Shown: positions 56,910 through 59,019 of the stretch, in pieces
Layout of the letters: the number at the start of each line of letters is the position of its first letter
How positions within the stretch are numbered: the first letter of the stretch is position 1
Origin: Escherichia phage Paul
Sequence record: NC_070992.1
Strand: one strand, 5' to 3'
Length of the DNA stretch: 64,000 nt
Notes under the pieces: generated by a model
Database searches by the model: none
What the model was told of the DNA's origin: nothing
What the model saw: the letters and a program-made list of their open reading frames with translations, nothing else
Program-made: the position numbers and the translations under genes

Positions 56910-58940
56910 TTAACCTCTATTCAATGAACATTTAGGAGAATTACAATAAACTTGATTCATAGAACCAAGCGTACAACTTTCAGCATCGCGCCACGGAATC
57001 TGCTTAAAACACTCTGAGCAGTATCCGAGGGTTGACCACATGGCTTTGGTGAAGTCAGTGCTTCGGTTTCCGTCAAAGCTGACAACAGTTTTGCGGAGAG
57101 CTGTTCGTGATTCAGGAAACACACCTGCTTTCTCAGCAGGTTCCTCCTTTTTTGGCTTAGTTGAGATTGCAAAAATACTGTTGCTACGTTTCTCAACATA
57201 AGCATCAACAACATCCTCCAGAGTGATGCCTGTCTGTTTCGCTGAGGAAGGTAATACAGTCATACGACCGATCATATCTTCAGTTACACGTAAAGCAAAT
57301 TCAGGACGACGGGCGTTTGTTGTATCTGTTGCTTTAATCCAGATATAACCATCTTTGATCGTAGCATTAGATACTTTCTTCTTTACTTCTACAGCGCAGA
57401 CTTTACAGATATCTTCACCACGAAGACGACTGAGTTCTTCATCAAACTCATTCTCTGTTTTAACTTCACCACAGATTTCACAAACACCAATAGGAGTCTC
57501 CTCCTCTTCTTCCTCTTTAGGTTTAGTCAAACCTTCCAGACATTCAGGATGCCAGTAGCACTGATATGCGAAGACTGCTTTAGGTGCATCCTTCCAATCA
57601 ATGTGTTTGTCACAACCGCCACAATCACCATGAGAATGTGCTTCCCAGAATTTACGAGTGATAGTAACGCCATTCTTGTTAACGAAACTATCATTCATAT
57701 CAAAAGGGATATCATCATCGAAGTCAGCAGTAGTTGACTCAGGCTCCTTTTTCTCCAGAGATGGGTCAACAAAACGACCTGCTGTGATCACTAAACGAAC
57801 CATAGCATTAACTTCGGAGATGCAGGATACTGTTCCACGGTAAACAATTTTAGGGTCTTTCAGTGCATCCTGATAAGCCTTAATGTCTACGTTATGAACA
57901 TCACCTTCGATATACTCTTGAGACTTCTCATCGTAGATATAACCAATCATCTTACCACGAGAAGGAACAGCACCAGCAGTTGCATAAGGAACAAACTCAT
58001 GTGGTGTGATTTCCACAGTCATGTCGCGGCGAATGTCAATGTTTCGATCGCTTGCGATTTTGTTTTGACTTACTACTGCGTTTCTTCGACGAACGTCTGC
58101 CGCTGTCACTCCCGGCTTCGTGTCGTAAGGATTGCTTGTACTGCTTTTTGAGGAACTTTGATAATTGCTTTGGCTGTAGTTGTTCGAGTAGTAACTGCCC
58201 CAACGATTGACTACCGTAAAAACCGGAAGCTCGTGGGCGACCTCTTCAACCAGTGTCATGCTATTGTTTGACATGTCAAAGATATACTCTGTACCAACTT
58301 TACATTCAAAATGCTCATCAATACGGTTCTTGTGAGACTTAGAACGCTTCAGAATCCACATCAACATATCTTCTTCAGAAGCACCAAACCAATCTCTGTT
58401 ACAACGTGCGAGATGGAAAGGACGCTCTTCATTACGGATGATATGAAGGCGGTTATCAGAAGCGTCATGCCAGATTAAGGTGAAGGCACCATCCAGCTTT
58501 TGAATGGTCTCTGCTGCACCAATAGTGTTAATAGAATGGCAGATGTTCTCACTGTCTACCTCGAAGTTTTTACTGTCAGGTAACAGATCTTGGTCCATCA
58601 AGGTTCCGTTATGAACCAGAGTGATGTTACCATGTTGGAAAGGATGGGCGTTCTTGGCGTTAACTGCACCTTTCGTTGCATGACGGCTGTGACCAACAAT
58701 CCATGAAGGTGCTACAGTGTAAGCTGTTTCACCAGTGGTGTGTTTCTTGTACTCATCTTGAAGGATGAATGCGAAAGAAGGAAGTGCTTCTTTATAAGTG
58801 AAGACCTCTTTAGTGCTCTTACGCTGACCAAAGATACCAGAGGAATGCTGTCCTCGGAATACTCCAGCATAAAAGAGTTGGTTAAATACGTCTAAATCAG
58901 TGCTTGACAGATTACCGCCAGCTAATACGATGCCACAAAT
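56910..58940 (-). CDS. class-II (Ntn) glutamine amidotransferase domain fused to a Cys-rich C-terminal domain; probable AUU start
   Basis: frame open upstream of the track start to 58943; encodes CGIVLAGG ... GHSRHATKG ... HPFQHGN ... HNGTL ... DSE; SD AGGTGG 8 nt before ATT-TGT; no ATG/GTG/TTG in between. Confidence 0.65.
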   Translation of the reverse strand: MCGIVLAGGNLSSTDLDVFNQLFYAGVFRGQHSSGIFGQRKSTKEVFTYKEALPSFAFILQDEYKKHTTGETAYTVAPSWIVGHSRHATKGAVNAKNAHPFQHGNITLVHNGTLMDQDLLPDSKNFEVDSENICHSINTIGAAETIQKLDGAFTLIWHDASDNRLHIIRNEERPFHLARCNRDWFGASEEDMLMWILKRSKSHKNRIDEHFECKVGTEYIFDMSNNSMTLVEEVAHELPVFTVVNRWGSYYSNNYSQSNYQSSSKSSTSNPYDTKPGVTAADVRRRNAVVSQNKIASDRNIDIRRDMTVEITPHEFVPYATAGAVPSRGKMIGYIYDEKSQEYIEGDVHNVDIKAYQDALKDPKIVYRGTVSCISEVNAMVRLVITAGRFVDPSLEKKEPESTTADFDDDIPFDMNDSFVNKNGVTITRKFWEAHSHGDCGGCDKHIDWKDAPKAVFAYQCYWHPECLEGLTKPKEEEEEETPIGVCEICGEVKTENEFDEELSRLRGEDICKVCAVEVKKKVSNATIKDGYIWIKATDTTNARRPEFALRVTEDMIGRMTVLPSSAKQTGITLEDVVDAYVEKRSNSIFAISTKPKKEEPAEKAGVFPESRTALRKTVVSFDGNRSTDFTKAMWSTLGYCSECFKQIPWRDAESCTLGSMNQVYCNSPKCSLNRG

Positions 58941-59019
58941 TTTCTAATCCACCTGAAGGGTAAACCCTTTCATCTAATTAACCTTTAAATTGTGCCCCTT
59001 TGCCAGAGGCACCCATTGA

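Follow-up and report, generated by a model that had tools for sequence, protein, structure and literature searches.

An AUU codon before the catalytic cysteine as the probable translation start of a glutamine amidotransferase gene in Escherichia phage Paul

Layout of the amidotransferase start region

The 64,000-nucleotide (nt) stretch of the Escherichia phage Paul genome analyzed here (NC_070992.1; the window in what follows) is ~96% identical to Escherichia phage NJ01 and other Kuravirus (phiEco32-like, Gordonclarkvirinae) coliphages, and carries on its minus strand a gene for a predicted glutamine amidotransferase, the orthologue of phiEco32 gp83 (phi32_83-type), whose proposed initiation codon is ATT (AUU in the mRNA). 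Read from this ATT, the coding sequence (CDS) spans 56910..58940 and encodes 676 aa (76.1 kDa). From 5′ to 3′ on the minus strand, the start region reads ...TAAAGGTTAATTAG ATG AAA GGG TTT ACC CTT CAG GTG GAT TAG AAA ATT TGT, and is continued by GGC ATC GTA TTA GCT GGC GGT, which together with the preceding Cys encodes CGIVLAGG. The ATT (58938..58940) stands directly before the TGT codon of the catalytic nucleophile Cys (58935..58937), and is separated by one AAA codon (58943-58941) from an in-frame TAG (58944..58946) that lies 3 nt before it. A Shine-Dalgarno (SD) sequence, AGGTGG (58949..58954), is located 8 nt 5′ of the ATT, with a duplex energy of −5.9 kcal/mol with the anti-SD, and a small hairpin, AAGGG-TTTA-CCCTT (58956..58969), is predicted by RNAfold in the centroid and in sub-optimal structures and leaves 1 nt between its end and the SD. 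Both are enclosed in a 9-codon open reading frame (ORF), MKGFTLQVD, which is in frame with the enzyme, extends with its stop over 58944..58973 (ATG at 58973-58971), and has its own AAAGG (58986-58982) 8 nt 5′ of its ATG; it is referred to as the mini-ORF. These sequence facts (the TAG, ATT and TGT, the AGGTGG 8 nt upstream, MKGFTLQVD and the open frame) had been described in an initial annotation of the window, and proved correct on the minus strand at every base.

The open enzyme frame begins at 58943 and runs to the stop codon at 56912-56910. As initially noted, no ATG, GTG or TTG occurs in this frame until a TTG about 113 codons in: this first canonical start, at 58601-58599 and directly followed by an ATG, lies 114 codons into the open frame. 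Among the large gene-like open frames of the window, this is the only one with so long a stretch before its first canonical start, which exceeds what chance would give. An AUU start would give the N-terminal sequence CGIVLAGGNLSSTDLDVFNQLFYAGVFR, with Cys first.

Enzyme identity, coding selection and existing annotation

Judged from its sequence, the product is predicted to be a class-II, or N-terminal nucleophile (Ntn), glutamine amidotransferase with glutaminase activity. Its N-terminal 240 residues match the class-II glutamine amidotransferase domain in Pfam (GATase_6, 55 bits with a cut-off of 27, E=1.1e-14; GATase_7, 27.4 bits with a cut-off of 25), and a profile of 30 family members matched the GlmS glutaminase domain 1XFF (E=3.5e-20), placing the family Cys on GlmS Cys1. 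The residue roles tested, namely the Arg in GH.R.AT.G, the Asn-Gly of the oxyanion hole and the Asp binding the substrate amino group, were all present: R86, N111-G112 and D129 are invariant in the 30 members and align with GlmS HTRWATHG, HNG and DTE. The family alignment (A1) starts with M-C-G without variation, and 36 of 42 database homologues start with MC. An AlphaFold2 model of the product (predicted local distance difference test, 93.8; predicted template-modeling (TM) score, 0.92) retrieved in Foldseek the GlmS glutaminase domain as the top match (TM 0.69-0.70, E=6e-14), followed by PurF, AsnS and EgtC, and the modeled fold is the four-layer alpha-beta-beta-alpha Ntn fold. Such an enzyme requires a mature protein that begins with Cys, as argued in the initial annotation, and exposure of this Cys would depend on the predicted AUU start. 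We consider it highly probable that translation of the amidotransferase starts at the AUU (58940-58938), directly before the catalytic Cys.

The 113 codons preceding any canonical start clearly appear, from their substitution pattern, to be translated and under purifying selection. In comparison with ECBP2, nucleotide differences fell 21/15/64 on the three codon positions, with 47 synonymous and 25 non-synonymous codon changes; across the ECBP2, KBNP1711 and EK010 orthologues, the substitutions numbered 16-22, 13-15 and 58-66 at codon positions 1, 2 and 3, respectively. Synonymous changes thus exceed non-synonymous ones by about 2:1, the catalytic motifs are intact, and the amino-acid identity between genera is 78-81%. 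These data bear directly on a truncated product, which would start at the downstream TTG/ATG or at an ATG 10 codons in, lack glutaminase activity, and leave the 113 codons as a decaying remnant. Many GenBank and RefSeq records annotate the gene so, and the proteomics table of phage SU10 lists 63.8 kDa, the mass of the truncated TTG product (PMC4281155). However, this value is the calculated mass of the annotated model and not a measured one, the strong third-position bias and the amino-acid identity are not those of a remnant, and a TTG start would delete the invariant catalytic Cys and the R-G, GH.R.AT.G and HNG motifs held by the 113 codons, while the ATG found 10 codons in in Suseptimavirus is a CTG in the window. 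Truncation is therefore regarded as highly improbable.

The ATT is already the annotated start of a 2031-nt CDS in phiEco32 gp83 (ABY52884.1, CDS 54493..56523), SU10_085, LAMP gp83 and Bas91_0078, which are the same gene with the same ATT and represent annotation choices only. Initiation at AUU with the AGGTGG as SD, as first proposed from the window, agrees with these four annotations and is strongly supported by the comparative evidence presented here and below. Among 60 listed Kuravirus records, only about 16 annotate an amidotransferase over the N-terminal region and the others either shorten this region or do not annotate it; in Suseptimavirus, the start is placed 10 codons late (MTSTDLD...) in each of the three records checked. 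Examples of inconsistent records are NC_018835 (NJ01_099, 113 codons late), NC_018859 (ECBP2_0082), NC_070981 and MZ342906. Because of such late or absent annotation, the catalytic Cys is removed from protein databases, and the AUU start would correct most Kuravirus and Suseptimavirus records, RefSeq included, in which the catalytic N-terminus of this expressed early enzyme is cut short or missing, so that an intact predicted glutaminase is hidden. We found no paper mentioning or testing this start codon, in a search that did not reach the 2008 phiEco32 paper.

By searching Gordonclarkvirinae loci with the start codon given as NNN, in GenBank isolates, five IMG/VR genomes and six metagenome contigs, the ATT was found invariant in every locus recovered (Kuravirus, Suseptimavirus and KBNP1711-type). 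In GenBank, 67 phage records that match at ≥95% identity share this junction unchanged, and the same start arrangement was read directly in more than 20 related loci, from isolates of many laboratories and the six metagenome contigs. The identity of the junction across these loci shows that it is not a sequencing error, the alternative offered initially. An error of sequencing or assembly, or a pseudogene specific to the Paul genome, is thus already refuted and retains a vanishingly small probability.

In the nearest ATG-type relatives (L032, L033, L034, L037, GAP52, Vp_R1 and Privateer), an ATG stands directly 5′ of the TGT. In a MAFFT alignment, AGGTGG-ATTAGAAA-ATT of the window aligned with AGAGGA-TTATAAG-ATG of the ATG-type relatives, which have AGAGGA or AAAGGA as SD, indicating that the ATT and the ATG differ by a point change and that the initiation regions around them are orthologous. 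An early idea, that the ATG of the mini-ORF was the ancestral start and that a 33-nt in-frame insertion had come to lie before the TGT, was rejected by the same alignment, as AGGTGG-N8-ATT aligns with the ancestral SD-N8-ATG. A 65%-identical relative, L031 (Logan SRR34434937, 1700-1725), keeps AGGTG and AAA-ATT-TGT and reads TAG GTG ACT AAA ATT TGT; its start candidates are the GTG, which is the gene caller's choice and gives MTKI-Cys, and the ATT, with an AGGTGA SD 5 nt upstream. In Grimontviridae-type relatives (L007, L015/L033, L016/L037 and L017), a conserved TTTAAATGTAAA-like motif occurs 20-30 nt 5′ of the ATG, before the SD, where the window has TTTAAAGGTTAA; the motif may be a promoter-like or other regulatory element, and was a poor match to the published phiEco32 (tAATGTAtA) and 7-11 (GTAAtg-16-aCTA) consensus sequences.

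Codons preceding the catalytic cysteine across the enzyme family

Three profile scans of IMG/VR yielded 164 distinct loci with a recognizable Cys-Gly N-terminus, apart from one (the 164th, L052) that reads ATG-TGC-TGT (M-C-C). The codon preceding the Cys was ATG in 126 loci, ATT in 21 (including five of Gordonclarkvirinae), ATC in 8-9, TTG in seven, GTG in one and ATA in none; the absence of ATA may be explained by the out-of-frame AUG that ATA-TGY would create. ATT or ATC thus occupies this position in ~18% of the family loci (29-30/164), several-fold more than GTG and TTG combined. In 22 of 29 ATT/ATC loci, an in-frame stop lies upstream with no canonical start between. Clustering at 60% identity separated the ATT/ATC members into 20 groups, and Fitch parsimony on a neighbour-joining tree gave ~19 switches between ATY and other codons, an approximate count since the deep branches are uncertain.

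The ATT/ATC loci also differ from the ATG loci in the sequence preceding the start. GGAGG is found exactly 8 nt upstream in most of them, and the mean SD duplex energies were −8.0, −9.2 and −6.5 kcal/mol for the ATT, ATC and ATG loci, respectively. A 5-7 bp hairpin abutting the SD was present in 65% of the loci with ATT or ATC and in 12% of those with ATG (Mann-Whitney U test, P=5e-9), with the stem sequence varying between lineages and its position constant. Most ATT/ATC genes are not coupled to the gene before them, at a median gap of 38 nt compared with 1 nt for ATG genes (P=2e-7), and when only intergenic gaps of ≥20 nt were compared, the SD-abutting hairpin was still found in 14/20 ATT/ATC loci versus 4/18 ATG loci (Fisher P=0.004). 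The window shows the same layout, with hairpin, SD, 8 nt and ATT in succession. This initiation-region layout therefore appears, at the sequence level, to be common to many independently evolved AUU- or AUC-start members of the same phage enzyme family.

IF3 discriminates against AUU and AUC starts. In the mechanism that we propose, the 30S subunit would bind the AGGUGG SD 8 nt upstream of the AUU and the initiator fMet-tRNA would pair with the AUU; deformylase and methionine aminopeptidase would then remove the Met and expose Cys1, as in the ATG-TGT relatives. Such initiation would be inefficient and IF3-sensitive, as for infC, and a strong SD with an adjacent hairpin might compensate in part for the weak AUU, or tune it, the net effect being a low or condition-dependent supply of a glutamine-hydrolyzing enzyme. 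More speculatively, hairpin, strong SD, 8 nt and AUU/AUC could constitute a distinct initiation module that was gained repeatedly, partly by horizontal transfer and sometimes alongside an HNH homing endonuclease, that makes synthesis of a glutamine-consuming enzyme conditional on the host translational state (e.g. IF3 availability, or nutrient and ppGpp sensitivity), and that was elaborated in phiEco32-like phages into a 55-70 nt invariant control region with an infC-like mini-ORF; we put this forward as a tentative proposal. AUU/AUC starts are regarded as rare curiosities in bacteria, and the strict need for Cys1 pins the start codon exactly here. If this proposal holds, the family would be a natural reporter, and non-canonical phage starts would be far commoner than annotation suggests. 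It would also offer a system for asking whether weak starts are used purposefully, what is missed by gene callers that accept ATG, GTG and TTG only, and whether homing endonucleases shape start codons.

The survey also bears on amber readthrough, another alternative raised initially. In the form considered here, translation would start at the mini-ORF ATG, read through the UAG and yield a 12-residue propeptide (MKGFTLQVD-X-KI) removed by autoproteolysis. Propeptides occur in some class-II amidotransferases: B. subtilis PurF is an Ntn amidotransferase whose Cys1 is exposed after removal of N-terminal residues, its propeptide comprising 11 residues. In keeping with such processing, the mini-ORF is in frame with the enzyme, and the gene caller's choice in L031 was an in-frame GTG that gives MTKI-C. 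However, PurF-like processing here would need readthrough of the UAG; the window holds no tRNA and the complete NJ01 genome only a tRNA-Arg(TCT), hence no phage suppressor. TAG ends two of the 43 long open frames in the window and therefore functions as a stop, with the long frames intact under code 11. Most ATT/ATC relatives moreover cannot encode a propeptide, having an in-frame stop and no canonical start upstream in the 22 loci mentioned above, so that a propeptide is no general solution, and in the nearest ATG-type relatives the ATG directly precedes the TGT. We thus consider readthrough very unlikely.

Pairs of near-identical genes with different start codons were found in the family. 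Three ATT loci can be matched to loci starting at ATG or TTG whose N-terminal domains are 99-100% identical to theirs: L206 versus L202/L204, L148 versus L145, and L131 versus L128. The genes of L206 (ATT) and L202 (ATG) differ at 6/820 nt, and those of the last two pairs at 33-36/~790 nt; in each pair the upstream flanks are completely unrelated, which places the mosaic junction precisely at the start codon. Of the 30 ATT/ATC loci, five have an HNH_3 homing-endonuclease ORF as the immediate upstream neighbour, against none of the 126 ATG loci (Fisher P=2e-4), and such an endonuclease may target the conserved start region or bring its own leader along. The five loci are L075, L079, L148, L150 and L206, in which the region of ~400 nt upstream of the amidotransferase start was considered, and some of the ORFs carry a C-terminal HTH or AP2 domain.

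These observations, together with the very similar GGAGGAT(N6)-ATY leaders in unrelated enzyme lineages, could point to a conflict with selfish elements, rather than to expression tuning, as the origin of the ATT; homing endonucleases would target the highly conserved ATG-TGT-GGN-ATH-GT at the gene start, and a change from ATG to ATY with a transplanted hairpin-SD leader would mark immune or converted alleles; the invariant Gordonclarkvirinae leader would be the fixed remnant of such an event. On the other side, the window and all its relatives have an amidoligase gene upstream and no endonuclease, and 25 of the 30 ATT/ATC loci have no recognizable HNH within 400 nt. We regard this scenario as rather unlikely, and since it explains the origin of the ATT and not the synthesis of the enzyme, initiation at AUU would still be required.

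A displaced start region may be seen in L258, where a mini-ORF, ATG ATG TGT GGT ATT AGT CAA GTA AAA TGA (MMCGISQVK), occurs ~40 nt 5′ of the ATC-TGC start and is followed by AAAGGA, 7 nt and ATC-TGC. This mini-ORF resembles the enzyme N-terminus, and by its sequence gives the appearance of an old start region that was duplicated or displaced.

The invariant leader and possible coupling to the mini-ORF

In an alignment of 15 distinct leader sequences from three lineages, whose coding regions are ~75-80% identical, a block of 55-58 nt from TAAAGG (58990/58987) through TGTGG (58933..58990) contained zero variable columns, compared with 9-25 variable columns in the flanking 30-column bins; beyond one synonymous C/T site after the block, ATCGTATTAGC is invariant too. 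The block is the longest exact match of the window to ECBP2-type loci and the third longest to the 14-kb KBNP1711-type locus; in the 14 kb compared, all other long exact matches lie inside coding regions, which leaves the block as the sole non-coding one. Other exact matches of 46-67 nt to the KBNP1711-type contig L023, at window positions 50107-50173, 51799-51856 and 56802-56847, are all coding. The leader motif is present once in the window. The block holds the mini-ORF with its AAAGG, the hairpin AAGGG-UUUA-CCCUU, the SD, the UAG and the AUU. From this conservation, the AUU appears to be no lesion but part of a fixed, nucleotide-invariant initiation region of hairpin, SD, 8 nt and AUU.

The mini-ORF is completely invariant in this alignment, and the SD-abutting hairpin is built from its codons 2-6. 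As the window shares the hairpin-SD layout of the ATT/ATC loci, the mini-ORF codons may, at least in part, simply be the hairpin. An alternative 8-bp fold, GGUUUACC/GGUGGAUU, was given by RNAfold and would sequester the SD. A long-range pairing, GGUUAAUUAGAUG/CAUCGUAUUAGCU, was also predicted; the one site in it that varies (C/U opposite G) would allow this pairing but is no test of it, so that the predicted pairing is suggestive only. Upstream of the block, past the stop codon of an Amidoligase_2-family gene (59020..60123, minus strand, from ORFs, Pfam and the NJ01, LAMP and Bas91 annotations) that ends 79 nt before the ATT, a stem-loop with an 8-bp stem and variable loop (59012-58992, minus strand) is present in the RNAfold minimum-free-energy structure and shows compensatory changes between lineages, GTGCCTCT/AGGGGCAC versus GCGCTCT/AGGGCGC. 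A scan of the leader with Rfam, including glutamine riboswitches, gave two chance-level matches (E at least 0.78, far below the gathering thresholds). Neither a phiEco32 gp36-type (tAATGTAtA, PMC8948821) nor a sigma-70 promoter was found on the gene strand at the leader, where the sole promoter-like match nearby lies on the opposite strand, at chance level and not conserved in Suseptimavirus.

The arrangement of the mini-ORF is consistent with termination-reinitiation, in which it would be translated from its own AAAGG-N8-ATG, stop at the UAG and restart 3 nt further on at the AUU; this would melt the hairpin and bypass part of the IF3 discrimination, adding to AUU initiation rather than offering an alternative start site. 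The geometry of stop, 3 nt and AUU is the same as in E. coli thrS-infC, UAA-GGU-AUU (PMC3592434), the mini-ORF and its SD lie wholly within the invariant block, and the SD-sequestering fold GGUUUACC/GGUGGAUU would be opened by a translating ribosome. L206 likewise has a 9-codon mini-ORF that runs through its hairpin and ends 1 nt before the ATT. However, mini-ORFs ending 0-9 nt before the start were not enriched in the survey (4/26 ATT/ATC loci versus 11/126 ATG loci), the ATT/ATC genes typically lack coupling to the gene before them, chance alone should by a rough estimate produce an ATG-initiated ORF that ends in an A/T-rich spacer in ~10% of cases, and the conservation is at the nucleotide level and cannot separate peptide, ORF or RNA structure. 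The coupled reinitiation suggested initially is thus possible by its thrS-infC-like geometry and finds no counterpart in the family counts, and we hold it to be less likely than not to contribute. Because mini-ORFs are not enriched in the ATT/ATC loci, coupling is treated as a possible extra of the Gordonclarkvirinae clade, which we suggest with reserve, and not as the basic mechanism.

Initiation at AUU itself is of a known kind, represented by infC, pcnB and ebpA, of which this gene is a well-supported further case. As in E. coli infC, which encodes IF3, the AUU lies 3 nt past a stop (UAG-AAA-AUU here, UAA-GGU-AUU in infC), the SD is inside the preceding reading frame, and relatives retain the non-canonical codon (PMC3592434, PMC5499595). 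The two differ in that the upstream frame of infC is the full-length thrS and its AUU serves autoregulation by its own product, whereas in the window nine codons make up the upstream frame and the gene encodes a metabolic enzyme without a known link to IF3. For the thrS-infC junction, the shares of reinitiation and de novo initiation have been estimated as roughly equal (PMC3592434). In E. coli pcnB and Enterococcus faecalis ebpA, a rare ATT start is likewise used instead of the downstream canonical codon preferred by pipelines, and was proposed to set low or conditional expression (for pcnB, Binns & Masters 2002, as cited in PMC3592434; for ebpA, PMC4447247). Those are single genes, whereas here many origins are seen in one phage protein family, with a strong SD and an adjacent hairpin. 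Three features appear to be undescribed so far: the recurrence of such starts within the family, their layout with SD and hairpin, and their association with homing endonucleases.

Several points weigh against an AUU start. An AUU start was 6-8 fold below AUG in one E. coli reporter (PMC3592434) and at ~5% in another reporter case (PMC5499595), and mRNAs with this start codon are poor competitors under nutrient limitation and ppGpp (PMC5499595). In SU10-infected cells, the protein was nevertheless detected readily, by nine peptides (PMC4281155), which implies some enhancing mechanism. With −5.9 kcal/mol, the AGGTGG is only a moderate SD and is surpassed by that of most other ATT/ATC members, and leader folds were no more stable than those of shuffled sequences (z = −1.1, +0.3), while a covariation test is impossible because the leader block does not vary. 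The SU10 search used the 63.8-kDa truncated model and is therefore silent on the N-terminus, and the SU10 supplements contained no matching peptide lists and no N-terminal peptides.

Beyond the start region, the enzyme shares with GlmS, PurF and AsnB the N-terminal Cys nucleophile, the Arg, the Asn-Gly, the Asp and the Ntn fold. It differs from them in a C-terminal region of ~430 aa with CxxC pairs and no sugar-isomerase, phosphoribosyltransferase or synthetase domain, and in its position within a phiEco32-type amidoligase/COOH-NH2 ligase/ATP-grasp cluster, with the Amidoligase_2 and COOH-NH2 ligase genes before it and an ATP-grasp 'S6 glutaminyl transferase'-like gene after it. The C-terminal third (window 56910-57700) carries three C pairs, CGGCDKH...CYWHPEC, CEICGEV...CKVC and CSECFKQ...CNSPKC, and a CxxC...CxxC pair is present in the family consensus too. 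These pairs are probably zinc-ribbon modules, and binding of nucleic acid by this region, and hence autoregulation, is conceivable.

On the plus strand, a sigma-70-like TTGACA-16-TACGAT at 58904-58931 would fire antisense across the leader; it is probably a chance match, as such matches equal the shuffle expectation and its −35 is absent in Suseptimavirus. Inside the N-terminal coding region, ~85 nt past the ATT, a terminator-like hairpin, GAGGACAGCATTCCTC, with a T-rich tail lies at 58840-58855 on the minus strand, and WFI101126 records carry a feature labelled 'terminator' under their match to window positions 58845-58937.

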